A DNA stretch of 55,310 bases, taken from assembly GCA_049972045.1 (NCBI GenBank), contig JBMFKS010000005.1, positions 4,202 through 59,511 of the forward strand, given 5' to 3'. The notes beneath the pieces were generated by a model. It searched no databases. It was not told the DNA's origin and was given only the letters and a program-made list of their open reading frames with translations. Shown piece after piece: positions 7,173 to 54,786 of this stretch (the stretch's first letter is position 1; each line of letters begins with the position of its first letter). The translations under genes were made by a program, and so were the position numbers. The DNA comes from Anaerolineae bacterium (GTDB lineage Bacteria > Chloroflexota > Anaerolineae > B4-G1 > DUEL01).

Positions 7173-7502
7173 ATGGAAGAGCCCCCTGTAGAGGCACTGA
7201 TTGCCGAGACGGTCCGCCGGATTGTGGAGATTCTCCATCCCCAGCGGGTGATCCTTTTCGGCAGCCGGGCGCGGGGCGAGGCGCGGCCAGATAGCGACAT
7301 AGACCTGCTGGTCATTGCCCGCTCTTCTGAGCCGCGCTACTGCCGGGCCGTCCCCCTCTATGGGGCCCTGAGCGACATCCCGATCGCGATGGACATCATC
7401 GTCTATACGCCAGAAGAGGTGGAAGAGTGGAGCGGCGTCCGTCAGGCCTTCGTCACCACCGCCCTCCGGGAGGGAATCGTCCTGTATGAAGACCGTGGCT
7501 GA
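7173..7502 (+). CDS. Minimal nucleotidyltransferase (MNT/MntA-like)
   Basis: ILFGSRARGEARPDSDIDLLVI; start reassigned to ATG 7173. Confidence 0.9.
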   Translation: MEEPPVEALIAETVRRIVEILHPQRVILFGSRARGEARPDSDIDLLVIARSSEPRYCRAVPLYGALSDIPIAMDIIVYTPEEVEEWSGVRQAFVTTALREGIVLYEDRG

Positions 7503-7905
7503 CCTGGTACGCGGATGGCTCCGCAAGGCGGGGAGCGACCTGACTAGCGCCGAACTCTGTCTGGAGGCCGGGCGGGCACTGGATATGGTCTGCTTTCACG
7601 CCCAGCAGGCCGCCGAGAAGTGCCTGAAGGCCTACCTGACGGCTTACGGGATGGATTTTCCTTTCGTGCACAACCTGGAGAAACTGATAGAATTGTGTGC
7701 CCGGCGGGACCCGGCGTTTCGCGCCATCCAGCCCCTGGGCCAGCAACTGACGCCGTACGCCGTCTCCCTCCGGTATGACCCTGAGTTCTGGCCGGAGATA
7801 GATGTGGCGGAACGTGCCCTGCATGCGGCGCTGACGATTCGGAAATTCGTTGTGGAACGCTTGCCAGCGGAGATGAAACCCGAAGAAGAGGCGATGAAAG
7901 GTTAA
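7486..7905 (+). CDS. HEPN domain protein
   Basis: WLRKAGSDL..A, CFHAQQAAEKCLKAYL, HNLEKL, YAVSLRY; overlaps the MNT gene. Confidence 0.9.
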   Translation: MKTVADLVRGWLRKAGSDLTSAELCLEAGRALDMVCFHAQQAAEKCLKAYLTAYGMDFPFVHNLEKLIELCARRDPAFRAIQPLGQQLTPYAVSLRYDPEFWPEIDVAERALHAALTIRKFVVERLPAEMKPEEEAMKG

Positions 7906-7914
7906 GGAGGAAGT

Positions 7915-10200
7915 ATGTCCCGTTATATTGCCACCCGAGCCATTCGCGGGGCCAATGCTATCGTCGCCGAGGCAGAGGCCATGCTGCAGAAAGCCCTCGC
8001 CGAGAAGGGGCCTGATACCCCCATCGCGTTTACCAATACCGCCTACTACCTGCCTGTGATCTACGGCATGCTGGCTCATCCCGTCAGCAAGATCGGGGAC
8101 CTGGTTCCCGTCATAGAGCACGCCAAGAGCCTGCTTCACCCCCCGCCGGATGAGAAATGGTGGGTCCCCTATCTGGGGGAGACGCTGGACTGCGGGATGG
8201 CGACGCTCCTGGCCTGCGAGGCGATTGAGGGCATCCGCTTCGCCTACGGCGAGCAGCCGGAACGATACCCCGGCTTCCGGATGACCGGCGGCGCGTCCTT
8301 CACCAGCCCAGAATTTGAGAAAGAGGAGGGGGGCGGTGGCTATCTGAACGGCCCCATTGACGACATCCAGTTGCGCTCTTGGGGCATCCAGTTGGTGGAT
8401 GGCCGGATGCCGGGTTTTGCGGCCATCGTCGGCGCGGCGCACAACAACCGGGCCGCCGTCGCCATCGTCCGCGAACTCCAGCGGCGCAACATTCTGGTCT
8501 TCCTCTCCGGCAACGTCAACGGTCGCTCCATCATTGACCAGTTGCACGAGGAGGGCGTGGAGATGGGCTACGATACCTACATCGTCCCCTTCGGTCGAGA
8601 CACCATCTCCGCTATCTACGCCCTGGGCTTCGCCACCCGCTCCGCCCTCACCTTCGGCGGCCTCAAGCCGGGCCAGTGGCGGGAGATTCTCCTCTACAAC
8701 AAATACCGCGTCTTCGCCTTCGTCTTGGCTCTGGGCGAGGTGGACGACCTGAAATACGCCGCCGCGGCCGGCGCCATCTCCTACGGCTTCCCCGTCATCG
8801 CCGATACTGTCATCCCCCAGATTCTCCCCACCGGTATCACCAGGTACGAGCACGTCATCTCCATGCCATGGAACGAGATTGAGGGGGAGACGGAGGAAGA
8901 AAAGGCAGCTCGGCTGGTCCAGAAGTGCATTGAGGTCCGCGGCGTCAAGGTGAAAATCACCGAGGTGCCCATCCCTGTCCCCTACGGCTCCGCCTTTGAG
9001 GGGGAGGTCGTCCGCAAGGCCGACATGCGGGTGGAGTTCGGCGGCCGCCACAGCCGCGCCTTTGAGTACCTCCGCATGGTGCCGATGGACCAGGTGGAGG
9101 ACGGCAAGATAGAGGTCATCGGCCCCGGCTTTGAGGATGTGCCCGTCGGTGGGGCAATGGACCTGGGCATCCTGGTGGAGGTCGCCGGGCGGAAGATGCA
9201 GGAGGACTTTGAGCCGGTGCTGGAGCGCCAGATTCACTACTTCATCAACGGCGCCTCCGGCGTCCAGCACATCGGTCAGCGGGACATCGCCTGGATCCGC
9301 ATCAGCAAGGCAGCCGCGGAGAAGGGTTTCAACCTGCGCCACTTCGGCGACATCCTCTACGCTCGCTTCCATGCCGACTTCGGTGCCATCGTGGACAAGG
9401 TCCAGGTGAAAATCATCACCGACCCGGCGCTCCACGCGGAATGGCTGCAGAAGGCGCGCGAAGCCTACGACCGCCGCAACCGGCGCCTGGCGGACCTGAC
9501 CGACGAGGCGGTGGACACCTTCTACTCCTGCATCCTCTGCCAGTCCTTTGCCCCTACTCACTGCTGCGTCATCAGCCCCCAGCGGCTGGGCCTCTGCGGC
9601 GCCTACAACTGGCTGGATTGCAAGGCATCTTACGAGATCAATCCCACCGGCCCCAACCAGCCTATCCCCAAAGGGCAGTGCCTGGACCCGGTGAAGGGCT
9701 ACTTCACCGGTGTCAACGAGTATGTCCGCATGGCCTCTCAGGGGACCGTGGACCAGGTGGCGATGTACTCCATCATGGAGAACCCGATGACGGCCTGCGG
9801 TTGCTTTGAGTGCATCGTCATGGTCATCCCCGAGGCCAACGGCGTGATGGTCGTCAGCCGGGAGGACCCCAGCATGACCCCCGCCGGGATGACTTTCTCC
9901 ACGCTGGCCGGCATGGCCGGCGGCGGCCTGCAGACCCCCGGTGTGATGGGTGTCGGCAAGTACTACCTGACCAGCCCCAAGTTCCTCTCCGCCGATGGCG
10001 GCTTCAAGCGGGTGGTCTGGATGTCCTCTTTCCTCAAGCAGACGATGGCTGAAGAGTTGAAGGCGGTCTGCGAGCGGGAGGGCGACCCGGACCTGCTGGA
10101 TAAGATTGCCGATGAGACCATCTGCACCGATGTGGAGGGGTTGCTGGCCTATCTGACGGAGAAAGAGCATCCGGCGCTGAGCATGCCGCCGATCTTCTAA
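7915..10200 (+). CDS. acsB: Acetyl-CoA synthase (bacterial type)
   Basis: NTAYYLP, CILCQSFAPTH, RLGLCGAYNWLDC, PMTACGCFEC (A-cluster ligands). Confidence 0.98.
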   Translation: MSRYIATRAIRGANAIVAEAEAMLQKALAEKGPDTPIAFTNTAYYLPVIYGMLAHPVSKIGDLVPVIEHAKSLLHPPPDEKWWVPYLGETLDCGMATLLACEAIEGIRFAYGEQPERYPGFRMTGGASFTSPEFEKEEGGGGYLNGPIDDIQLRSWGIQLVDGRMPGFAAIVGAAHNNRAAVAIVRELQRRNILVFLSGNVNGRSIIDQLHEEGVEMGYDTYIVPFGRDTISAIYALGFATRSALTFGGLKPGQWREILLYNKYRVFAFVLALGEVDDLKYAAAAGAISYGFPVIADTVIPQILPTGITRYEHVISMPWNEIEGETEEEKAARLVQKCIEVRGVKVKITEVPIPVPYGSAFEGEVVRKADMRVEFGGRHSRAFEYLRMVPMDQVEDGKIEVIGPGFEDVPVGGAMDLGILVEVAGRKMQEDFEPVLERQIHYFINGASGVQHIGQRDIAWIRISKAAAEKGFNLRHFGDILYARFHADFGAIVDKVQVKIITDPALHAEWLQKAREAYDRRNRRLADLTDEAVDTFYSCILCQSFAPTHCCVISPQRLGLCGAYNWLDCKASYEINPTGPNQPIPKGQCLDPVKGYFTGVNEYVRMASQGTVDQVAMYSIMENPMTACGCFECIVMVIPEANGVMVVSREDPSMTPAGMTFSTLAGMAGGGLQTPGVMGVGKYYLTSPKFLSADGGFKRVVWMSSFLKQTMAEELKAVCEREGDPDLLDKIADETICTDVEGLLAYLTEKEHPALSMPPIF

Positions 10201-13284: not shown

Positions 13285-13716
13285 GTGGGGAGCGGAGGAG
13301 CGGAGGAGCAGGGGAGCGGAGGGGTAAGGATAATTCAGGGGCATCGGGAATTGGAAGTGTATCGGCTGGCGTTTGATGCCGCGATGCGAATTTTCGCCGT
13401 CCCAAAGGTTTTTCCGCGGGAGGAGACCTACTCTCTGGTGGATCAGATTCGTCGGTCGTCCCGGTCCGTCTGTGCGAATATCGCGGAGGCATGGCGGAAG
13501 CGCCGGTACCAGGCGGCCTTCATCAGTAAGCTGAGCGATGCGGAAGCGGAGGCGGCCGAAACACAGGTTGGGCTCCCGTTCTTCGTGGAATGTGGCTATC
13601 TGGCGCAGGAGGTCGGCCAGGAGTTGCATCGGGTCTACGACGATGTTATCGGCAAACTGGTCAATATGATCGCCCATCCCGCCCCGTGGCTGCTGTTCAG
13701 GAGGAGCACCCGATGA
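13285..13716 (+). CDS. Four-helix-bundle protein (23S rRNA IVP / TIGR02436-like); start uncertain
   Basis: HRELEVYRLAF...FPREETYSLVDQIRRSSRSVCANIAEAW...FISKL...EAAETQV. Confidence 0.9.
   Translation: MGSGGAEEQGSGGVRIIQGHRELEVYRLAFDAAMRIFAVPKVFPREETYSLVDQIRRSSRSVCANIAEAWRKRRYQAAFISKLSDAEAEAAETQVGLPFFVECGYLAQEVGQELHRVYDDVIGKLVNMIAHPAPWLLFRRSTR
13287..13325. repeat. 8-mer array (GGAGCRGR), left flank of the four-helix-bundle gene
   Basis: GGGAGCGGAGGAGCGGAGGAGCAGGGGAGCGGAGGGG; roughly complementary to 13721-13760. Confidence 0.7.
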
Positions 13717-15662
13717 GGCTCACCTCTGTCCCCGCGCACCCCGGCACCTCTGCCCCCGCAGTCGCTGTCGTCTTCCGTCCTGCCGAGAAACGGGTAGAGG
13801 TTCCGCCGGGCACCCTGCTCAGCGAGGCGGCCCGCCAAGCCGGGGTGGACATCCTGATGCCCTGCGGCGGGCAGGGGCGCTGCGGCCGCTGCGCGATAGT
13901 GGTGGAATCCGGCTCCGTCCGCCGCCGCTCCACCCAGCGCCTCACGCCGGACGACATCGCCGCCGGGTACGCGCTGGCCTGCCAGACCGTGGTGGAGAGC
14001 GACGTCGTCGTCTTCGTCCCGCCCCAGGAGCGGATTGAGCGCCGTATCCAAGAGACCAAGCGCGCGGCAAAGATAGAACTCCCGTTCCCCTACGACCGCC
14101 ACGACCAGCCGCTGCGCAAGTTCGCCGTCACCCTGGAACCCCCCTCCCTGGCCGACCAGACCGACGACTGGTCCCGGCTCCAGCGGGAGATGGCCCGCCG
14201 CTACGGGATCCGGGACCTCCAGGCATCGCTCCCTGTCCTGCGGAAACTCCCCCGCGCCCTGCGAGAGGGAAACTGGACGGTCACCACGGTGGTGGAAATG
14301 GATGCGTGGGACCGTCCGGAGGGGCCGCCACGGCTGATAGACGTCCTGCCGGGAGAGCATCTGGAGAGCCTCTGGGCCGTGGCCATTGACATCGGCACCA
14401 CCAGCAACGTCGTCTGGTTGGTGGACCTGATGCAGGGGCGGGTGATGGCCCAGGCCGCCGACTACAACGGTCAGATCGCCCGTGGGGAGGACGTCATCTC
14501 CCGCATCATCTACGCCTCTAAGGGGAACGGCCTGCAGGAACTCCAGGAACTGGTGATGAGCACGCTGAACCGGCTCATCGCCCAGGTGGCTGCGGAGCAG
14601 AACATCCGCCCGGACGAAATCTACAAGGCGACCGTTGCCGGCAACACCACGATGATCCACCTCTTCGCAGGCATCCCGCCGGAGTCCATTCGGCTGATGC
14701 CCTTCATCCCGGTGGTCAACCACGTGCCCACCTTCCCCGCCCGGGAGGTCGGCCTGGGGATCCACCCGGAGGGGACGGTGGACTGTCTGCCCGGCATCGC
14801 CTCCTACGTGGGCGCGGACATCACCGCCGGGGTGCTCAGTTCCGGCCTCTGCGACTCGGACGAATTGACGCTCTTCATAGACGTGGGCACCAACGGGGAG
14901 ATGGTGCTGGGGGATTGCTCCTGGCTGATCTCCTGCGCCTGCTCCGCCGGTCCGGCCTTTGAGGGCGCAGGGGTCGTCCACGGGATGCGCGCGACCGCGG
15001 GGGCGATTGAGGAGGTCTGGATCCACCCCCAGACCTACGAGGCGGCCTACAAGGTCATCGGCGACGAGCGGCCCCGGGGCATCTGCGGCTCCGGCCTGAT
15101 CACGCTCCTGGCGGAGATGTTCGTCAACGGGGTGGTGGATAAAAGCGGGAACATCAACCTGGACCTGCCCACGAAGCGGGTGCGGCGGGGGGAGCACGGG
15201 CCGGAGTACGTCGTCGCCTGGGCGGATGAGACGGCGACGGGCCGCGATATCGTCATCACCGCGGTGGACATAGACAACCTGATGCGGGCCAAGGCGGCCA
15301 TTTACGCCGGATTCTCCGTCCTGGCCCGAAGCGTTGGCCTGAGCCTGCAGGATGTTCAGCGGGTGCTCATCGGCGGCGCGTTCGGCCAGTACATCAACGT
15401 GGAGAAGGCCATTCAGATCGGCATGCTCCCGGACATGCCCTACGATCGCTTCCATTTCCTGGGCAACACCTCAGTGCGGGGGGCGTACTATGCGCTGGCT
15501 TCCCGCGAGATGCGCCGCCGAGTGACCGAGGTAGGCCGGATGATGACCTACCTGGAACTCTCGGCCGACAATACGTTCTTTGACGAGTTCAACGCGGCCC
15601 TCTTCCTGCCGCACACCGACCTGAGCCAGTTCCCGTCGGTGGCGGCGCTGGTGGAGGAATAA
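13713..15662 (+). CDS. acsV: ASKHA-type reductive activator of corrinoid protein (RACo/AcsV)
   Basis: 2Fe-2S motif CGGQGRCGRC...LACQ; AIDIGTT, GEDVISRI, FIDVGTNGE, CSAGPAFEG, GICGSG; ATGA overlap with the upstream gene. Confidence 0.93.
   Translation: MRLTSVPAHPGTSAPAVAVVFRPAEKRVEVPPGTLLSEAARQAGVDILMPCGGQGRCGRCAIVVESGSVRRRSTQRLTPDDIAAGYALACQTVVESDVVVFVPPQERIERRIQETKRAAKIELPFPYDRHDQPLRKFAVTLEPPSLADQTDDWSRLQREMARRYGIRDLQASLPVLRKLPRALREGNWTVTTVVEMDAWDRPEGPPRLIDVLPGEHLESLWAVAIDIGTTSNVVWLVDLMQGRVMAQAADYNGQIARGEDVISRIIYASKGNGLQELQELVMSTLNRLIAQVAAEQNIRPDEIYKATVAGNTTMIHLFAGIPPESIRLMPFIPVVNHVPTFPAREVGLGIHPEGTVDCLPGIASYVGADITAGVLSSGLCDSDELTLFIDVGTNGEMVLGDCSWLISCACSAGPAFEGAGVVHGMRATAGAIEEVWIHPQTYEAAYKVIGDERPRGICGSGLITLLAEMFVNGVVDKSGNINLDLPTKRVRRGEHGPEYVVAWADETATGRDIVITAVDIDNLMRAKAAIYAGFSVLARSVGLSLQDVQRVLIGGAFGQYINVEKAIQIGMLPDMPYDRFHFLGNTSVRGAYYALASREMRRRVTEVGRMMTYLELSADNTFFDEFNAALFLPHTDLSQFPSVAALVEE
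13721..13760. repeat. 8-mer array (CACCTCTG type), right flank, inside the start of acsV
   Basis: CACCTCTG TCCCCGCG CACCCCGG CACCTCTG CCCCCGCA. Confidence 0.6.
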
Positions 15663-18602: not shown

Positions 18603-19026
18603 GTGCCGGAGGAAATTCGCCGGGATCCCCTCTGGCAGATGGAGGCGTATCGGCTGGCCCTGTATTTCTATGACCTAGTGGTTAGTCAACTTATGGGTCC
18701 GAATTGCCGACGCGGCCAGAGGCCCATGCAGGCCCCAAGTAGGGCAACTGCGAGCAGTTGCCCTACGGGGTTGGGCGATTGCCGAGCAGTTGATCCGCAG
18801 CGCGGGTTCTATCGCGGCGAACATTAAAGAGGGCTACGGTCGGGGTCTGGGCCGACAGTTTGCTCAATTCCTGGGCTATTCCCTCGGTTCCACCCGGGAG
18901 AGCCGTGGCTGGTATGATCGGGGTCGCAGACTTCTGGACCTGGAGACCATCCGTCACCGCTATCGCATCCTGACCCAGATCATCCGCCTCCTGACGGTCG
19001 CCGTTCGCCAGCAGCGCAATCCCTAA
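18603..19026 (+). pseudogene. Four-helix-bundle gene disrupted by a MITE fragment
   Basis: N-part DPLWQMEAYRLALYFYDL and C-part RGWAIAEQLIRSAGSIAANIKEGYGR..SLGSTRES lie in different frames, separated by 18675-18766. Confidence 0.85.
18675..18766 (+). mobile_element. Partial MITE copy
   Basis: CTAG|TGGTTAGTCAA...GGCCCATGCAGGCC...GTAGGGCAACTGCGAGCAGTTGCCCTAC. Confidence 0.85.
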
Positions 19027-19074
19027 TCCCTAATCCCTAATCCCTAATCCTAATCCCTAATCCCTAATCCCTAA
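19018..19074. repeat. Tandem heptamer (AATCCCT)x8, one unit 6 nt
   Basis: Read directly; contains the stop codon of the four-helix gene. A weak complementary remnant GTGATTTGTGATTAGAG lies at 18537-18553. Confidence 0.95.
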
Positions 19075-25896: not shown

Positions 25897-26047
25897 ACCA
25901 CGAAGACACCAAGAGACGAAGAAATTAAAAATTAACAATTAAAAATGAAACTTCGTGCCTTCGTGTCTTGGTGGTTTTCTTTACCACGAAGACACAAAGA
26001 CACGAAGTTTTGTCAGTTTTTCTTTGTGCCTTCGTGTCTTGGTGGTT
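25896..26047. repeat. Two inverted 9-mer arrays (hairpins); the first loop holds an AT-rich 7-mer array
   Basis: ACCACGAAGACACCAAGAGACGAAG...CTTCGTGCCTTCGTGTCTTGGTGGT, then a second near-identical hairpin; first loop AAATTAAAAATTAACAATTAAAAATGAAA. Confidence 0.9.
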
Positions 26048-35111: not shown

Positions 35112-35246
35112 ACCACAAAGGCACGAAGACACAAAGAAAAATTTATAAAACTTCGTGTCTTTGTGTCTTCGTGGTGAATTAGATAACCACAAAGACACGA
35201 AGGCACAAAGAAAAAAATTTACTTTGTGTCTTGGTGTCTTCGTGGT
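35112..35246. repeat. Two inverted 9-mer arrays (hairpins), right flank of the GxxExxY gene
   Basis: ACCACAAAGGCACGAAGACACAAAG-(A/T loop)-CTTCGTGTCTTTGTGTCTTCGTGGT, followed by a second near-identical hairpin. Confidence 0.92.
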
Positions 35247-36397: not shown

Positions 36398-36548
36398 GAT
36401 GGCCGCAGAATAAAAAGACGGGCTCACCCTGGGGGCCGATTCTCACCGCTCAGAGGCGGAGTAGCACGTACTGACGTACGAACAGCCGACCCAGGACTTA
36501 CGAGTCCAGTCTGGTTAGAGTACCCATTCTCTGTCAAGTGAGCCGGCT

Positions 36549-39640: not shown

Positions 39641-40345
39641 AGCCGTGGTGTCCCTTCAGGAACGGCTTCAGCGGGCGGGCATCCCGTCCGTGGTCGTCGG
39701 GGGCCTGGCTCTGAGCGTCTGGGGCGAGCCCCGCGCGACCCGTGACGTGGACGTGCGGGTCCTGCTGGGCCGGGATGAGGCCCATCGGCTTCTCTCCGCC
39801 TTGGCCGATGAATACGCCCTCCTGGCCGATGAGCCGCTGGAAACGCTGAGGAAAATGGGTTTCCTCTTCGTTCAGGACAGGACGGGAGTGCGGCTGGACC
39901 TGTTGCTGGCGGATACGGACTTTGACCGGAAGGTCGTAGAGCGTGCTCGTCCTGTAGAGATAGCGCCCGGGAAGGTTATCCTGGTTTGTAGTGCGGAAGA
40001 CCTGCTCATCTACAAATGGATTTCCACCCATCCCAGAGACGATGAGAACGCGGCCAGCATCGTCCACCGGCAGGGGGATGCTCTGGACGATGCCTACATC
40101 CAGCACTGGCTGGAGCAATTGGAACGGGCCCTGGATGACTCTACTGGTTTGTCACCAGCACTTTTGTGGGTCTTGGCGCCCTCCAGTAGGGCAACTGCTC
40201 ACAGTTGCCCTACTGGTGGCCTGCATGGGCCCCTGGCCGCGTCGGCCATTCGGACCCATCAGTATAAACTTGACTAACCACTACCCTTTTGGAGGAGTAT
40301 CGTCGGCTGCGCCAAGAATCTCCCATTCGCAAGGAGAGGCAATGA
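39624..40345 (+). pseudogene. Nucleotidyltransferase-family gene (AbiEii/DUF6036-like) frameshifted near the 3' end by a MITE
   Basis: VVGGLA..WGEPRATRDVD, AEDLLIYK..PRD. Removing the 140 bp insertion restores ...LDDSTLLEEYRRLRQESPIRKERQ* ending at 40345. Confidence 0.82.
40141..40284 (-). mobile_element. Complete MITE with terminal inverted repeats and target-site duplication
   Basis: CTAC|TGGTTTGTCA...TGACTAACCA|CTAC (TIR 9/10 match); internal palindrome CCAGTAGGGCAACTG-CTCA-CAGTTGCCCTACTGG. Confidence 0.92.
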
Positions 40346-48698: not shown

Positions 48699-48980
48699 TT
48701 GAAGCCGATTCACTTTTCCCGACATGCCAGGCACCGGATGTATCTGCGCGGCGCAACAGAGCAGGAAGTTGTACAAACCATTCAAGGCGGCCTGTGGGAG
48801 CCAGCGCGGGGAGGAAAGTATCAGGCCCGCCGGACGTTTGTCTTCGGACAGCCGTCTCCGGTAGACCGGAAGATATATCCTTTCAAGACAGTACACGCCA
48901 TTTTTGCTGAGGAAACGGATAGAATTGTTGTGGTGACGGTTCTGGTTTACTATGGAAATGTTGGAGAGGAGGAGAAATGA
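48699..48980 (+). CDS. DUF4258-like putative toxin
   Basis: IHFSRHARHRMYLRGATEQEV...IVVVTV. Confidence 0.8.
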   Translation: MKPIHFSRHARHRMYLRGATEQEVVQTIQGGLWEPARGGKYQARRTFVFGQPSPVDRKIYPFKTVHAIFAEETDRIVVVTVLVYYGNVGEEEK

Positions 48981-49225
48981 GGATTTATTACGATGCAGAG
49001 GTGGATGCGTTGTATGTGCAGTTTCGCTCTTTGGAGCCGGGTATGGCGCAGGCGCGGCCGTTGAGCGACCAGATTATCGCGGACTATGACCCTGAGGGGC
49101 GGCTCGTCGGGCTGGAGATTCTGGATGTCAGCGAGTTGCTGGGAGAGGAGCGAGGCCGGCTGATGCTGGAGATCGCGCCGGCTCTGGTGTCCCGCGTGCC
49201 GGAAAGCGCGGGGTTCAAACTCTGA
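48977..49225 (+). CDS. DUF2283-family protein
   Basis: MRIYYDAEVDALYVQF...IADYDPEGRLVGLEILDVS. Confidence 0.88.
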   Translation: MRIYYDAEVDALYVQFRSLEPGMAQARPLSDQIIADYDPEGRLVGLEILDVSELLGEERGRLMLEIAPALVSRVPESAGFKL

Positions 49226-49284
49226 CCCCAGGGGGCGCAAAGAGACACGCGAAAAACTTTGTGTCCTTCGTGTCCTTTGTGGTT
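49225..49284. repeat. Degenerate inverted 9-mer array
   Basis: Right arm CTTTGTGTCCTTCGTGTCCTTTGTGGTT; left arm decayed. Confidence 0.7.
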
Positions 49285-49305
49285 CAACGCAGACCGGAGG
49301 TGTCA

Positions 49306-49743
49306 ATGGAGACCGGAGGGAACGGGCACGAGGAGTTCGTGCCGGAGATTGTGGCGTTCACCTGCATCTACTGCGGCTATATGGCGGCGGATACCGCCGG
49401 CGCGCTGCGGCTGAAGTACCCGTCCAACGTCCGGCTGGTGCGGCTCCCCTGCACCGGCAAGGCCGACGTCCGCTATATCCTGGAGGCCTTTGAGAAGGGC
49501 GCGGACGGGGTCTACATCGTCGCCTGCCCGCTGGGAAACTGCCACCATGTGCACGGCAACGAGCGCGCGCTGGCGCGGGTGAAGTACGCCAAGGCGCTGC
49601 TGGACAAAATCGGCATCGGGGGGGACCGGCTGGACATCGTTTTCGTCTCCGGCGGCATGGGTGCTACCTTCGCCGAGGCGGCGCGAAGGATGACGGAGAG
49701 GGTGAGGGAGTTGGGGCCGAGTCCGTTAAAAATGAACAATTAA
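49306..49743 (+). CDS. mvhD: MvhD-family 2Fe-2S subunit
   Basis: FTCIYC.Y.AADTAG, PCTG, GADGV..ACPLGNCHH. Confidence 0.93.
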   Translation: METGGNGHEEFVPEIVAFTCIYCGYMAADTAGALRLKYPSNVRLVRLPCTGKADVRYILEAFEKGADGVYIVACPLGNCHHVHGNERALARVKYAKALLDKIGIGGDRLDIVFVSGGMGATFAEAARRMTERVRELGPSPLKMNN

Positions 49744-49757
49744 CAATTAAAAATTAA
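49726..49757. repeat. AT-rich 7-mer array, left flank of the four-helix gene
   Basis: TTAAAAA TGAACAA TTAACAA TTAAAAA TTAA; contains the mvhD stop. Confidence 0.9.
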
Positions 49758-49767
49758 GGGGAGGTGG

Positions 49768-50244
49768 ATGACGCGCGGGGAGGTCCCGGCGGGGAAGAGG
49801 GAGACCCGGGACACAGTCCGGGCGGCTCCGGTTACCCGACCAGCGGAGCGGAGGCGCGACTGGCGGCTGGAGGGGAATCAGGGGCTGGATATTCAAGAGC
49901 GAGCGTTTCAATTCGCGGTGCGGGTAGTGAAACTGGTCAATCGGTTGCCCCGGACGATTGCCGGGATAGAAGTAGGCCGACAGTTGGTCCGCTCGGCGAC
50001 GTCGGTGGGGGCAAACTTGGAGGAGGCCGACGCGGCGGAGTCCAAAGCCGATTTTATTCACCAGGTGGGGATCGCCCACAAAGAGGCCCGGGAGGCTCGC
50101 TATTGGCTCCGCATCGTCCGCGCATCGCTGCTGGATGACGGGGAGGTCGTCTGGCTGCTTCGGGAAAGCGATGAGTTAGTTCGCATTCTCAACTCCATCA
50201 TCTCCAACGCCCGCAGGAGCCCGCGCAGCAAGGTCGGCCGCTAA
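49768..50244 (+). CDS. Four-helix-bundle protein (start uncertain)
   Basis: DIQERAFQFAVRVV...QLVRSATSVGANLEEA..AESKADFIH...KEAREARYWL. Confidence 0.92.
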   Translation: MTRGEVPAGKRETRDTVRAAPVTRPAERRRDWRLEGNQGLDIQERAFQFAVRVVKLVNRLPRTIAGIEVGRQLVRSATSVGANLEEADAAESKADFIHQVGIAHKEAREARYWLRIVRASLLDDGEVVWLLRESDELVRILNSIISNARRSPRSKVGR

Positions 50245-50249
50245 CTTCC

Positions 50250-50283
50250 ATTGTTAATTGTTAATTTCTTAATTGTTCATTCT
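50250..50283. repeat. AT-rich 7-mer array, right flank (complementary to 49726-49757)
   Basis: ATTGTTA ATTGTTA ATTTCTTA ATTGTTC ATT. Confidence 0.9.
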
Positions 50284-50298
50284 CCCAAAGGGGGCATC

Positions 50299-53200
50299 AT
50301 GTCCGGGCACTCCAACGGCGTAGTTGGTTCCGTTCTGGTTGTCGGCGGAGGCATCGCCGGGGTGCAGGCCGCGCTGGACCTGGCGGAGGCCGGCTTCAAG
50401 GTCTACCTGGTGGAGCAGAAGTCCGCCATCGGCGGGCACATGGCCCAACTGGATAAGACCTTCCCCACCAACGACTGCGCCATGTGTATCCTCAGCCCCA
50501 AACTGGTGGAGGCCGGCCGCCACCGCAATATTGAGTTGCTGGTGGATACCGAGGTCCTCAGCGTGGACGGGGACGCGGGTCGTTTCACCGTCCGTCTGCG
50601 CAAAAAACCCCGTTATATTGACCTGGACAAATGCACCGGATGCGGGGAGTGCAACCGGGTCTGTCCCGTTATCATCCCGGACCGGTTCAACGCGGGGCTG
50701 GGCGTCCAGCGCGCGGCCTATAAACTCTACCCCCAGGCGGTCCCCAACGCCTATGCCATAGAGAAGCGGGGGATCGCCCCCTGCCGGGACGCCTGTCCTA
50801 CCGGTCAGCGGGCCCAGGGCTATATTGCCCTCATTCGCGAGGGCCGCTACGAGGACGCCCTGCGGGTCATCAAAGAGGACAACCCGTTCCCGGGCATCTG
50901 TGGGCGCATTTGCAACCACCGCTGTGAGGACGCCTGCAACCGGGGCAAACTGGATGAGCCCATCAACATCCGAGCCCTCAAGCGCTTCGTCACGGATAAG
51001 GTGTACGAAAAGCCGCGCGTGCCCCCCGAACCGGCCCCGCGCCGGTATCCGCAGCGGGTTGCCGTCATCGGCGCCGGGCCCTGCGGCCTGACCGCCGCCC
51101 AAGACCTCCGCAAAATGGGCTACGGCGTCACCGTCTTTGAGGCCCTGCCCGTTGCCGGAGGGATGCTGCGCGTCGGCGTGCCGGAGTACCGCTTGCCCTC
51201 GTGGATTGTGGACCGCGAGGTCCAGGACATCGTGGACCTGGGCGTGGAGTTGCGGTTGAACCATCCGGTGAATAACCTGGATGAGGTCTTCGCGGAGGGG
51301 TTTGACGCGATTCTCATCGCCGTCGGCGCGCACGAGGGTCTCCGGCTCAATATCCCCGGGGCCGACCTGGAGGGTGTGCTGATCAACACCCACTTCCTGC
51401 GGGATGTCCGGCTGGGGAAGCCGCCGAAACTGGGAAAGGTCGTCGCGGTCATCGGCGCGGGCGACGTGGCGATGGACGTGGCCCGCACCGCGCGCCGGAT
51501 GGGCGCTGAGGTCCACGTCTATTACCGCCGCACCCGCGAGGAGGCTACGGCCGACCCGGAGGAGATGGAACGGGCGGAGGAAGAGGGCGTCGTCTTCCAC
51601 TGGCAGGTCACGCCGGTGGAGATTGTGGGGGACGGCGGCCGGCGCGTCGTAGGGATGAAGTGCGTCCGCACCGAACCGGGGCTGCCCGACGAGACGGGGC
51701 GCCGTCGTCCGGTCATCGTTCCCGACTCCGAACATTTTGTCCCCTGTGACAACGTCATCTTCTCCGTGGGGCAGCGGGCCGGTCTGGCCTTCATCCCGGA
51801 GAGTGTGGGCATCGGCGTTACGGACCAGGGGACGATCGCCGTCAATCCCAATACGCTGGCGACCAGCCGGCCGGGCGTCTTTGCCGCCGGCGATGTCGCG
51901 ACGGGAACGGCGTTTGTGATTGAGGCCGTCGCTGCAGGCCACCGCGCTGCCCAGGCTATCCACCGGTACCTTCAGGGGATGGATCCGGAGCCGCCGCCGA
52001 AACCCAGGTTGCCGGTGGTGGACCTCTCGCGGGCGGAGATTGAGGAGCGGGTCGCGCGCGGGGAGGTCACCGTTCAGCCCCGCGTCCCGATGGACACGCT
52101 ACCTGTGGAGCGACGGCTCTCCACCTTTGAAGAGGTCGTCGCCGGATACACCGACGAGCAGGCCCAGATGGAGGCGGCCCGCTGTCTGGCCTGCGGGATC
52201 TGCTCGGAGTGCCGCCTGTGTGAACGGGTCTGCCAGGCCGGCGCCGTGGACCACGATATGGTGGAACAGACGCTGGAACTGGAGGTCGGCGCGGTGCTGC
52301 TGGCCCCGGGCTTTGCCACCTTTGACGCCGAGAAGGCCGGGGAGTACGGCTGGGGCCGCTATCCCAACGTCGTGACGTCCCTGCAGTTTGAGCGGCTCCT
52401 CAACGCGTCCGGCCCCACTCTGGGGCATGTCCAGCGCCCGTCCGACGGCAAAACGCCCCGGCGCATCGCTTTCATCCAGTGCGTCGGCTCCCGCGACCAG
52501 AAGCACGACTATTGCTCCTCGGTCTGCTGCGTCTACGCCATCAAAGAGGCGATGATGGCGATAGAGCACGAGCCGGATACCGAGGTGACCATTTTCCTGA
52601 TGGACATGCGGGCCTTCAGCAAGGGGTACCTGGACTTCTACCACCGGGCGAAGGAGCGATACGGCATCCGCTTTGTGGAGTGCCGCGTCTCGGCGGTGAA
52701 GGAGGACCCGAAGAGCCGCAACCTGGTCATCCGGTATGTGGATGACCGGAATGGGCGGGGTATCCGGGAGGAGGAGTTTGACCTGGTTGTCCTCTCGGTG
52801 GGGATGGAGGTCCCGGAGAGCGTCCGGGACCTGGCCCGGCGGGTGGGCGTGGCGACGGACGCTTACGGCTTCTGCCAGACGGTACCCTTTGCGCCGCTGC
52901 AGACCAGCCGGCCGGGGGTCTTCGCCATCGGGCCGTTCCGGGAGCCGAAGGACATCCCGGAGTCGGTGGTGGAGGCCAGCGCGGCGGCGGGGCTGGCGGG
53001 CGCGCTTCTGGCTTCTGCCCGCTGGACCCAGACCGCGCCGGAGGTCTATCCGCTGGAGCGGGATGTGACGCAGGAGCCGCTGCGCATCGGCGTCTTCGTC
53101 TGCCAGTGTGGCTCCAACATCGCCGGATTCCTGGACGTTCCGGCGGTGGCGGAGTACGCGGCCACCCTGCCCGGCGTCGTCCATGCCGAATACAACCTCT

Positions 53201-54786
53201 ATACTTGCTCCCAGGACTCCATCCGGCGGATTGTTGAACGGGTGCAGGAATTGAATCTGAACCGGGTCGTCGTGGCGGCCTGCACGCCGCTGACGCATGA
53301 GCCGCTTTTCCAGGAGGCCATCCGGCAGGCGGGACTCAACCCGTATCTTTTTGAGATGGCCAACATCCGCAACCAGTGTTCGTGGGTCCACCAAAACGAC
53401 TGGGAAGGGGCAACGAAGAAGGCGAAGGACCTGGTGCGGATGGCGGTAGCGAAGGCGGCCCGGCTGGAGCCGCTCTACCGGACGCGCGTGCCGGTCCAGA
53501 AGGCCGCGCTGGTCATCGGCGGCGGCGCGGCGGGGCTGAACGCCGCACTGACCCTGGCCCGTCAGGGCTTCCCGGTCCATCTGGTGGAGCGGTCGGACCG
53601 GCTGGGGGGGCACCTGCTCCATCTGCGCCACTCGCTCCAGGAGGCGACAGGGGACGGGGAGCGGATGTGGCTGGACCCCCAGGCGTACGCCCGCGCGCTG
53701 GTGGGGCGGGTGGCCGCGGAGCCGCTGATCACCGTCCACCTGAACACGGAGGTCCTGGAGACCAGCGGCTTCGTGGGGCAGTACGTCTCCCGGCTGCGGG
53801 GGCCGCAGGGGGAGTTGGAGGTCTGCCACGGCGTGACGATTGTGGCCGTCGGCGGGGTAGAGTACCGGGGGCCGGAGTATGGCTACGGGACGGACCCGCG
53901 CATTCTCACTCAGCAGGAGTTTGAGGAGCGGCTGGGGGAGGGGCGGGACCTGCCCGATTCGGTGGTGATGATCCAGTGCGTGGGGCCGGCAGAGCGATAC
54001 TGCTCCCGCATCTGCTGCACGACGGCCCTGAAGAACGCGCTGATGCTGAAGCGGCACAAGCCGCAAGCCCGGGTGACGGTCATTTACCGGGACATCCGGA
54101 CTTTCGGGTTCAAGGAGCGCACCTACCAGGAGGCCCGCCGGGCCGGGGTGATATTTATCCGGTATGACTTTGACCGCAAGCCCGAGGTAAAGATTGCGGA
54201 TTCCAGGCTGCAGGTGCGGGTGTGGGAGCCGGTGCTGGGGGAGGAGTTGGTGCTGGAGCCGGACCTGGTGGTGCTGAGCATGCCGGTGGTGCCGTCACCG
54301 GGGGCGCGGGAGTTGGCGGCGCGGCTGAAGTTGCCGGTGGACCTGGACGGGTTCTTCCTGGAGGCGCATGTCAAACTGCGGCCGGTGGATTTCGCCACCG
54401 ACGGCTTCTTCTTGGCGGGGATGGCCCACTACCCGAAGTTCCTGGGGGAGGCGATCGCCCAGGCCCAGGCGGCCGCGGCCCGCGCGGCGACGGTTCTGGG
54501 CCGGGACTATCTGGAGGTGGGTGGCGTCGTCGCGCAGGTGGACGCGGAGAAGTGCGTCGGCTGCCTGACCTGTGTGCGGATTTGCCCGTACCGGGTGCCG
54601 CACATCCGCGCGGACCTGGTTGGGGTGGGGGGCATCGTCGGCGCGGCCTACATTGAGCCGGCTCAGTGCCACGGCTGCGGCATTTGCGTGGGCGAGTGCC
54701 CGGCGAAGGCCATCCAGTTGCTCCACTACCGGGACGTGGAGATGGAGGCGAAGATAGAGGCGCTGGAGGAACTCGTGGGGGTATGA
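50299..54786 (+). CDS. HdrL-type fusion: two HdrA modules with an inserted GltD/NfnB-like NAD(P)H-flavin domain
   Basis: DKTFPTNDCAMC; insert APCRDACP..CGRICNHRCEDAC, GAGPCG, GAGDVAMD..YRR, FAAGD, EAARCLAC; second HdrA module and terminal ferredoxin. Confidence 0.92.
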   Translation: MSGHSNGVVGSVLVVGGGIAGVQAALDLAEAGFKVYLVEQKSAIGGHMAQLDKTFPTNDCAMCILSPKLVEAGRHRNIELLVDTEVLSVDGDAGRFTVRLRKKPRYIDLDKCTGCGECNRVCPVIIPDRFNAGLGVQRAAYKLYPQAVPNAYAIEKRGIAPCRDACPTGQRAQGYIALIREGRYEDALRVIKEDNPFPGICGRICNHRCEDACNRGKLDEPINIRALKRFVTDKVYEKPRVPPEPAPRRYPQRVAVIGAGPCGLTAAQDLRKMGYGVTVFEALPVAGGMLRVGVPEYRLPSWIVDREVQDIVDLGVELRLNHPVNNLDEVFAEGFDAILIAVGAHEGLRLNIPGADLEGVLINTHFLRDVRLGKPPKLGKVVAVIGAGDVAMDVARTARRMGAEVHVYYRRTREEATADPEEMERAEEEGVVFHWQVTPVEIVGDGGRRVVGMKCVRTEPGLPDETGRRRPVIVPDSEHFVPCDNVIFSVGQRAGLAFIPESVGIGVTDQGTIAVNPNTLATSRPGVFAAGDVATGTAFVIEAVAAGHRAAQAIHRYLQGMDPEPPPKPRLPVVDLSRAEIEERVARGEVTVQPRVPMDTLPVERRLSTFEEVVAGYTDEQAQMEAARCLACGICSECRLCERVCQAGAVDHDMVEQTLELEVGAVLLAPGFATFDAEKAGEYGWGRYPNVVTSLQFERLLNASGPTLGHVQRPSDGKTPRRIAFIQCVGSRDQKHDYCSSVCCVYAIKEAMMAIEHEPDTEVTIFLMDMRAFSKGYLDFYHRAKERYGIRFVECRVSAVKEDPKSRNLVIRYVDDRNGRGIREEEFDLVVLSVGMEVPESVRDLARRVGVATDAYGFCQTVPFAPLQTSRPGVFAIGPFREPKDIPESVVEASAAAGLAGALLASARWTQTAPEVYPLERDVTQEPLRIGVFVCQCGSNIAGFLDVPAVAEYAATLPGVVHAEYNLYTCSQDSIRRIVERVQELNLNRVVVAACTPLTHEPLFQEAIRQAGLNPYLFEMANIRNQCSWVHQNDWEGATKKAKDLVRMAVAKAARLEPLYRTRVPVQKAALVIGGGAAGLNAALTLARQGFPVHLVERSDRLGGHLLHLRHSLQEATGDGERMWLDPQAYARALVGRVAAEPLITVHLNTEVLETSGFVGQYVSRLRGPQGELEVCHGVTIVAVGGVEYRGPEYGYGTDPRILTQQEFEERLGEGRDLPDSVVMIQCVGPAERYCSRICCTTALKNALMLKRHKPQARVTVIYRDIRTFGFKERTYQEARRAGVIFIRYDFDRKPEVKIADSRLQVRVWEPVLGEELVLEPDLVVLSMPVVPSPGARELAARLKLPVDLDGFFLEAHVKLRPVDFATDGFFLAGMAHYPKFLGEAIAQAQAAAARAATVLGRDYLEVGGVVAQVDAEKCVGCLTCVRICPYRVPHIRADLVGVGGIVGAAYIEPAQCHGCGICVGECPAKAIQLLHYRDVEMEAKIEALEELVGV

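Follow-up and report, generated by a model that had tools for sequence, protein, structure and literature searches.

A PF05635 gene enclosed by complementary heptamer arrays between mvhD and hdrL of an Anaerolineae bacterium: a candidate intervening-sequence-type cassette in a protein-coding operon

Introduction

The stretch of Anaerolineae DNA analyzed here (contig JBMFKS010000005.1, positions 4,202 to 59,511; 55,310 nt, referred to as the window) contains, between mvhD and a gene for a giant HdrA-like flavoprotein named hdrL, a small gene of the PF05635 family that is preceded by an AT-rich heptamer array and followed by the complement of this array. PF05635/TIGR02436 is a very common protein family of unknown function, often present in several copies per genome, and is named for a rare context, the 23S rRNA spacer. 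The question at this locus is what such a gene, together with its arrays, is doing inside a protein-coding operon. The answer that we favour, with a probability of about 55%, is that gene and arrays form a selfish, promoter-less cassette of the rRNA intervening sequence (IVS) type, which is probably cut by RNase III at the stem formed by its two arms. Published work is cited here from excerpts of the respective articles.

Anatomy of the Cassette

All features of this locus lie on the + strand. The mvhD gene (FlpD family; 49306–49743) matched PF02662 with an E value of 5.9e-43, and its start was revised, ATG at 49306 being likelier than GTG at 49261 because the alignments of orthologues begin at residues 12–16 and a GGAGG precedes 49306. 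The last codons of mvhD and its TAA stop (49741–49743) are within the upstream arm (49726–49758), an array of about 4.6 heptamer units (AATTAAC, AATGAAC and AATTAAA) recovered by Tandem Repeats Finder (TRF) and as direct and inverted repeats. The sequence then gives a Shine-Dalgarno (SD) motif, GGGGAGG (49758–49764), and the cassette gene (49768–50244). The downstream arm (50250–50283), with about 4.4 units (TTGTTAA, TTCTTAA and TTGTTCA), is likewise called by TRF and is complementary to the upstream arm in the inverted repeats and in the duplex and cofold predictions; directly after it come the SD (GGGGG, 50290–50294) and the ATG (50299) of hdrL. The latter gene (50299–54786) encodes 1495 aa with Pfam matches to Pyr_redox_2, Fer4 and others. 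Both arms are AT-rich in a genome of 65% G+C.

The initial annotation had described an AT-rich heptamer array holding the mvhD stop, a complementary array 3' of the gene and a perfect core in the two arms. Sequence, TRF (period-7 arrays at 49726–49757, 4.6 copies, and 50250–50281, 4.4 copies) and the repeat search, which found tandem periodicity in both arms flanking 49768–50244, all bore this out. The perfect core comprises 13 nt, AATGAACAATTAA at 49731–49743, including the stop TAA of mvhD, and its exact complement TTAATTGTTCATT at 50269–50281. Moreover, inverted pairing of the arms is possible in several registers, such as 49731–49751 with 50261–50281 (21 nt, 86%) or 49730–49747 with 50250–50267 (18 nt, 94%).

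When the region 49715–50300 was folded, the two arms were paired in the minimum free energy (MFE) structure and the gene was looped out, in agreement with the earlier proposal that pairing would place mvhD beside the hdrL start. Cofolding of the arms alone predicted 31 bp in four helices (13+6+6+6), the innermost of which joins 49760–49765, within the cassette SD region, to 50244–50249, just past the cassette stop. The net stability of the stem was −23.3 kcal/mol at 37°C and −13.1 kcal/mol at 60°C, and at the latter temperature the long-range stem was still part of the MFE structure. The cognate duplex reached −31.1 kcal/mol vs. −12.3 ± 3.1 kcal/mol when the downstream arm was shuffled, and none of 200 shuffles equalled the cognate value. 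A search with Rfam gave no family on the arms and no rRNA in the window; a 16-bit match to RsmY (E value 0.2) was attributed to chance.

The product of the cassette gene is a four-helix-bundle protein of 158 aa, with an Arg-rich N-terminal extension of 39 aa, that matches PF05635 (E 4.9e-20; 72.2 bits, cut-off 33.8) and TIGR02436, "four helix bundle protein" (E 6.1e-26; 90.8 bits, cut-off 24). A conserved motif, (G/Q)xxRxxxSxxxNxxE, has been described for this family (PMC3936711). In the alignment of 22 members, including the cassette protein, Q33, R36, N44 and E70 were invariant, and S40 and E47 were conserved in at least 90%. The nearest solved relative by sequence was PDB 2RLD (E 6.4e-18), and the profile built from the 22 members retrieved 2GSC, the Xanthomonas protein XCC0516 (E 4.8e-30). 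Both entries contain five chains, and from these relatives the cassette protein is predicted to be a pentamer of four-helix bundles. The median dN/dS of the gene was 0.10 (25 usable of 28 pairs, eight orthologues); this low value indicates that the protein is selected, and it is under purifying selection.

Inverted Arrays around Other Members of the Family

The flanks of further family members were compared by scoring, for each gene, how well 219 nt upstream could be matched without gaps to the complement of 170 nt downstream. The best match counted, and a locus passed when its score was above the 99th percentile of those obtained with shuffled downstream flanks. This ungapped score, with three controls, was used instead of duplex energies, which over long flanks were swamped by GC-rich coding sequence. 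A null built from non-cognate flanks was inflated, many loci sharing similar units. Three sets of loci were scored: the eight PF05635 genes of the genome to which the window belongs (G000; 3.34 Mb, 300 contigs); 27 loci from 41 genomes of the same order (29 fetched, two dropped for short flanks); and a broad set with one genome per species, for which 80 of 557 confirmed matches were kept and 78 scored (two dropped for a short flank or Ns). The broad set was picked by likeness to a single alignment (A3) and is thus a sample of PF05635 and not the whole family.

Inverted complementarity was found at 6/8, 19/27 and 62/78 loci, respectively, compared with 20 of 600 random places of G000. The same flanks compared in direct orientation passed at 1/8, 7/27 and 18/78 loci. 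The enrichment of inverted short-period arrays around family members, for which the initial annotation had proposed a survey, is thus strong and extends over many phyla: the broad set included Nitrospirota, Verrucomicrobiota, Planctomycetota, Desulfobacterota-like lineages, Acidobacteriota, Cyanobacteria, Deinococcota, candidate phyla and others. Since 15 of the 18 copies in five named genomes, three of them isolates, passed as well, the bracketing is no artefact of binning. All four copies of Calidithermus chliarophilus DSM 9957 and all five of Nodosilinea nodulosa PCC 7104 are bracketed, and Mariprofundus ferrooxydans PV-1 is another carrier. Units are 7 nt long at the mvhD-hdrL site and 7–10 nt elsewhere. 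The arrays also keep a polarity relative to the gene: of 81 upstream arrays, 60 have more G than C and 16 the reverse, whereas of 83 downstream arrays, 64 have more C than G and 18 the reverse.

The simplest objection to these results is that the genome is rich in intergenic heptamer repeats and the gene merely happens to lie between two of them. Period-7 arrays are certainly abundant, 145 of them having at least five copies vs. 39, 18 and 21 for periods 6, 8 and 9. However, the random places given above passed far less often than the family loci, and the layout is kept in genomes with few arrays in the DNA sampled (for instance, six per Mb in G034). Together with the concerted changes of both arms at the orthologous site described below, the flank test contradicts such a coincidence, which we regard as highly improbable.

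In G000, inspection of the printed flanks by eye showed short-period arrays on both sides of all eight family genes. The unit is different at each locus, and the downstream array looks complementary to the upstream one and usually stops right before the SD of the next gene. Conversely, among the 36 period-7 complementary array pairs of the genome, the five whose members are 301–800 nt apart were all PF05635 loci. Neighbours verified by Pfam lie on the same strand as the cassette gene upstream in 8/8 and downstream in 7/8 cases. The host pairs are CoxM-like and CoxS-like subunits; PBP2 and RsmG; GyrA and an unnamed open reading frame (ORF); CdhD and RACo; enoyl-CoA hydratase and acyl-CoA dehydrogenase; a pterin-binding enzyme and FolD; an aminotransferase and a 2-hydroxyacid dehydrogenase; and MvhD and the HdrA-like protein.

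Two of these copies are also within the window. The second cassette (13289–13716; gene match 13345–13659) lies between CdhD, the delta subunit of CO dehydrogenase/acetyl-CoA synthase (CODH/ACS), and a RACo-like activator. Its upstream arm is an 8-mer array at 13289–13322 (GGAGCGGA), and the C-rich partner, at about 13720–13790, falls within the opening codons of the next ORF, which has an ATG that overlaps the stop codon of the cassette. The third copy (18675–19074; match 18775–18993), between the pterin-binding enzyme and FolD, has a long TAATCCC array downstream (19018–19074), and its gene is interrupted at about 18675–18775 by an element of about 95 nt that resembles a miniature inverted-repeat transposable element (MITE).

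For the broad set, an ORF-run heuristic of neighbour orientation failed the control with the own genome and was set aside; its unreliable calls for 67 loci were 37 plus, 9 minus and 21 unclear upstream, and 41 plus, 7 minus and 19 unclear downstream. The heuristic gave way to Pfam checks and to a GC-phase caller that judged 15 of 16 control flanks correctly. Within 700 nt of the 80 broad loci there was no 23S rRNA, and two of the 80 were in clusters of stable-RNA genes: in a metagenome-assembled genome of Bipolaricaulia the cassette is between three tRNA genes and the gene for the signal recognition particle (SRP) RNA (L087, 248–1370), and in L086 (482–570) it adjoins a tRNA. By eye, the relative in L027 precedes a Cas4-like ORF. 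Seven loci of relatives (L014, L015, L018, L019, L023, L036 and L037) showed a whole hairpin upstream of the cassette and a third array downstream with the sense of the second arm, so that the first arm could pair there either locally or across the gene.

The Cassette at the mvhD-hdrL Site of Related Genomes

A cassette occupies the mvhD-hdrL site in eight genomes of the same genus. In two further congeners, G002 and G003, the gene is reduced by deletion to remnants, which are accompanied by residual arms (tblastn E values of 6.6e-4 and 0.005 in G002 and 1e-5 in G003), and in eleven genomes of other genera mvhD and hdrL are 49–236 nt apart without a cassette. Relatives with empty sites, which the initial annotation had proposed to look for, do exist. 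One genome carries an unrelated insert of 1 kb, and no significant match to gene remnants was found in L054, L055 and L058. In the hot-spring metagenome DNA runs X1 and X2 the locus was uninterrupted, and no junction bridging the cassette was found.

Two types of arm were distinguished among the eight carriers, AATTAAC-like in G000, G001 and G007, and AATGAC(C/A)-like, in 7- or 8-mers, in G004, G005, G008, G009 and G012. In all eight the downstream arm is the complement of whichever upstream type is present. Cognate duplexes ranged from −27 to −63.5 kcal/mol, none of 200 shuffles reached the cognate value in any carrier, and pairs of the same type averaged −29.4 and −51.1 kcal/mol vs. −20.5 and −19.5 kcal/mol for cross-type pairs. 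The arm type follows the lineage of the cassette gene and conflicts with the history of the flanking genes. Thus, G001 and G004 are 96% identical in mvhD and 98% in the 5' end of hdrL, whereas their cassettes are 76% identical and their arm types differ; between G000 and G009 the identity is 94% for mvhD and 70% for the cassette. Accordingly, the median dS was 1.23 for the cassette vs. 0.46 for mvhD, and in the G001/G004 pair it was 1.05 vs. 0.12. With the cassette greatly exceeding mvhD in dS and the gene tracking the arm type, the conclusion is that the block of gene plus arms has been replaced at a fixed site. Arms and gene are hence one block, inherited, exchanged and lost together. The initial annotation had suggested a unit that is either mobile or processed at the RNA level: the behaviour as one unit stands, through the co-segregation of arms and gene and through the series of presence, decay and absence, and the RNA-level part is a probable one, argued from analogy in a later section.

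The same co-segregation could also be expected if the pentameric four-helix-bundle protein itself bound to the arrays, in RNA or single-stranded DNA, with each subunit taking one unit, in which case the cassette would regulate, protect or propagate its own transcript or the flanking repeats. Purifying selection on the protein would fit with this possibility, as would the five chains of 2GSC and 2RLD and the description of a Xanthomonas relative as a toroidal homopentamer (PMC4990558). Array sequence, moreover, was shared in 35% of 46 protein pairs at least 70% identical vs. 2–6% at lower identity. Over 1976 pairs protein identity rose with array similarity (Spearman 0.17), a trend that includes shared descent and is used as a hint only. 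It is also known that Avd, a four-helix-bundle protein discussed below, binds nucleic acid. Nevertheless, the arms are different for each of the eight paralogues of a single genome, units range in length from 7 to 10 nt, and the genome-wide families to which the arms correspond are far more numerous than the genes. We consider protein binding an unlikely explanation of the arrays.

Comparison with Known Systems

The closest known systems are the ORF-bearing 23S rRNA IVSs of Coxiella, Leptospira, Brucella and Xanthomonas ("S23p"), which share with the cassette the PF05635 gene, the size class of about 0.45–0.55 kb and a stem around the ORF. The tie of the family to stem-bounded, RNase III-excised intervening sequences, which the initial annotation had drawn, is documented: the Coxiella IVS has a family gene, a 28-bp stem of terminal inverted repeats in which RNase III cuts in vitro with mapped ends, and tandem heptamers of strain-variable number before the ORF (PMC4990558). 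The same source cites excision by RNase III for Leptospira, Salmonella and Alphaproteobacteria as well as an older proposal of mobility, and regards the element as selfish (PMC4990558). Complementary termini enclosing the ORF are likewise found here, with the 31-bp stem that no shuffle matched. The cassette is different in three respects. First, the rRNA elements are inserted in helix 25 or 45 of 23S rRNA, whereas the cassette sits between mvhD and a hdrA-like gene. Second, both of its arms are whole tandem arrays. Third, its protein is under purifying selection, whereas decay has been reported for Coxiella (PMC4990558).

Genome-wide heptamers such as GGGAATC of Xanthomonas and GGGGA(C/T)T of Nostoc are also similar, since they are intergenic tandem repeats, often in convergent pairs, variable in copy number and transcribed (PMC4692102). 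The genome of the window and that of Calidithermus hold heptamer families of this kind. The short tandemly repeated repetitive (STRR) sequences of cyanobacteria are genome-wide short repeats of the same heptamer kind. In the cassette, however, the pair is split by a gene, and the article on the Xanthomonas and Nostoc repeats is silent on the PF05635 family, the terms "23S" and "four-helix" being absent from it (PMC4692102).

The resemblance to Avd of diversity-generating retroelements (DGRs), also put forward initially, rests on the literature: the fold is a homologous four-helix bundle, and PF05635 is the commonest Pfam family near DGR reverse transcriptases (PMC10053308). The cassette, by contrast, is without a pair of template and variable repeats, its flanks are tandem arrays and its neighbours encode MvhD and an HdrA-like protein. 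No match to the reverse transcriptase family RVT_1 was obtained in the whole genome, which is 96.9% complete, and a DGR accessory gene was rejected for this reason. A classical transposon or MITE was rejected as well, as no two of the eight copies share the same ends and the surroundings showed no transposase context, in analyses that did not include a dedicated transposase search. The comparison of filled with empty sites made no target-site duplication visible, although the divergence of the sites is too great for certainty.

Phage T7 early mRNA and bacterial operons have intercistronic RNase III sites, and their working resembles the one proposed for the cassette: a duplex between cistrons, a cut by RNase III and the splitting of a polycistronic RNA. 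Those sites are, however, short local hairpins, while the duplex of the cassette spans an entire gene and consists of tandem units. Finally, the habit of sitting inside operons is shared by the PF05635 genes in cas operons. Within cas loci 18 such genes have been described, for example between cmr3 and cmr2 (PMC3936711), and the family is listed among those linked to CRISPR (PMC10910872). These genes were read as possibly having a cas-associated function, and flanking arrays are not described in the excerpts of either article (PMC3936711, PMC10910872).

Our search of the full-text literature, from which subscription journals and supplements were outside, found no published link of the PF05635 family in general with flanking inverted arrays, and the family is not mentioned in a paper on Beggiatoa heptamers (PMC4679880). 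What was already known is thus an rRNA IVS with heptamers in one element; what is new is an IVS-type element outside rRNA, with arms built of arrays.

Proposed Working of the Cassette and Origin of Its Arms

As an mRNA here contains the parts of the Coxiella element and a gene for RNase III is present in the genome (E 4.2e-36), pairing of the arms and cutting by this enzyme are taken as the most likely working of the cassette. The cassette, which has its own ribosome-binding site and no promoter, would be co-transcribed with mvhD and the hdrA-like gene. Once transcribed, the arrays would zip in several registers into a duplex of about 31 bp, the tandem units in both arms allowing nucleation in any register across the 0.5-kb loop. 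Such a duplex would loop out the cassette, mask its SD and put the mvhD stop beside the SD of the downstream gene. The rRNA elements suggest by analogy that the host RNase III would then cut the duplex, freeing the cassette RNA from the operon transcript and separating the mvhD cistron from the hdrA-like one. The gene-relative polarity of the arrays across phyla fits a strand-specific role. What the data establish is the anatomy, its generality, the behaviour as one block and the purifying selection on the protein; co-transcription, formation of the stem in vivo, cleavage by RNase III and any benefit or cost to the host are inferred.

Several observations weigh against this proposal or limit it. 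The stem is AU-rich and the organism is from a hot spring, with a net stability of just −7.3 kcal/mol at 70°C. About a fifth of the family loci (16/78 in the broad set) failed the flank test. In the RNA runs X19 and X20, made up of contigs from relatives 5–15% diverged, coverage was confined to portions of mvhD and hdrL and did not extend to the cassette. Furthermore, the best arm alignments, available for 98 of 113 loci, showed no excess of G·U mismatches (131 G·U vs. 132 A·C). Structured RNAs under selection normally show a strong G·U excess, so this symmetry speaks against selection on RNA pairing.

The symmetric mismatches fit an element that works at the DNA level. Here, a palindromic short-period array already resident in the genome, able to form a hairpin or cruciform, would have supplied one arm from each of its halves, with the gene in its loop, and pairing in RNA would be a by-product. 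The complementarity would come from insertion into hairpin loops or from gene conversion with copies of the repeat family, and would serve the capture and exchange of cassettes. The repeats themselves lend weight to this explanation and speak against a purely RNA-level one. The arms match species-specific families present genome-wide and are not private to the cassette. In G000, with 313 period-7 arrays of 94 unit types, the AT-rich units of the mvhD-hdrL cassette recur at at least nine other loci, as loops of a hairpin element with 8-mer stems. The octamer found in the arms of G005 and G009 matches at 161 places in the former genome and 110 in the latter vs. 12, 13 and 0 in G000, G001 and G004, and in Calidithermus the heptamer of the arms of one cassette has about 1800 matches. 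In addition, G000 contains 21 gene-less heptamer hairpins with loops of up to 20 nt, 18 of the 20 callable ones between co-oriented genes, and in other split hairpins (C38, C61 and C69) the loop is occupied by a MITE-like element or by other repeats. In five of the six loci scored, the PF05635 arms were orphan halves without a local partner, and cassette-free sites of other genera have a one-directional GGTGATT-like array where filled sites have the downstream arm (GGTCATT).

On the other side, the strand polarity of the arms relative to the gene is kept across phyla, while in the gene-less hairpins it is mostly reversed (C-first in 13 vs. G-first in 5). Neither a transposase nor an integrase turned up, in work that included no search aimed at transposases, and the arms differ among copies within one genome, unlike ends recognized by a transposase. 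At the mvhD-hdrL site the arm type tracks the gene lineage, so that the cassette would have to re-enter the same site. Taken on its own, the DNA-level explanation is in our opinion possible, at less than even odds; a DNA-level origin and upkeep of the arms is nevertheless a serious rival of the IVS-type reading and may be the second half of the truth.

The abundance of the repeats was also compared with that of the gene. Array load and PF05635 copy number gave no clear relation (Spearman coefficient 0.50, p 0.14) in 10 genomes, represented by samples of 40–400 kb except for the whole own genome. The two genomes without PF05635 had the lowest load and a low load, respectively, the loads of G034, G005 and G023 being also low, and a congener without intact copies had 25 vs. 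96 period-7 arrays per Mb, about a quarter. A tie of the PF05635 family to the unexplained short tandem repeat families is a possibility. A broader and more doubtful idea would make the cassettes and the genome-wide heptamer or octamer families, of STRR-like type, two faces of one widespread system, in which the pentamer would recognize or help to propagate the arrays and the cassette would enter and leave any transcription unit (mRNA operons, tRNA/SRP RNA clusters or rRNA) via paired arrays, 23S rRNA being the most visible landing site.

Other Elements in the Window and in Related DNA

Palindromic elements are found in the window at 25899–26007, 35151–35244 and 49235–49285. Their stems consist of 8-mer units (CACGAAGA / CTTCGTGT), their loops are the AT-rich heptamers of the cassette arms, and many copies exist genome-wide. 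The last of them follows a toxin-antitoxin-like pair, DUF4258/DUF2283 (48699–49225), located between the first hdrA-like gene and mvhD. The MITE-like element of about 95 nt contains an internal GC-rich hairpin and had 222 blastn matches genome-wide, among them those at window positions 18675–18775 and 40183–40283; it is also present in the loop of a heptamer hairpin at G000:C38:25829–25934. A HicA/HicB and a HEPN/nucleotidyltransferase pair (G000:C105:4601–5291 and 7390–8272; L227) were evaluated as split cassettes and rejected, each having whole hairpin elements on each side. The hairpins flanking the two pairs have 9-mer units (CACGGATTT) and represent a third hairpin family at gene junctions. 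In Calidithermus chliarophilus (G043) the heptamer family consists of GCAAAAC, GCAAGAC and GCCAAAC and switches strand along the contigs.

A full-length DUF3800-III RNA (Rfam RF02962, 71.8 bits) was identified on the minus strand at window positions 36416–36512. Finally, a paralogous MvhD/FlpD gene (G000:C181:2652–3080), with many relatives, contains in most of the genomes searched a single in-frame TGA whose place is conserved, which suggests a selenocysteine form of the protein.

Significance

If an array-enclosed cassette inside operons is the usual state of PF05635 genes, the rRNA intervening sequences would be one case of a general transcript-invading element, and the long-unexplained intergenic heptamer repeats would gain a partner that can be tested. 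Annotators and CRISPR-association screens would likewise have a reason for the presence of PF05635 genes inside unrelated operons, including cas operons. The cassette would also offer a natural system for the study of long-range RNA duplexes made of register-tolerant repeats, and its effect on core operons of energy metabolism, such as those for Mvh/Hdr and CODH/ACS, is directly testable.

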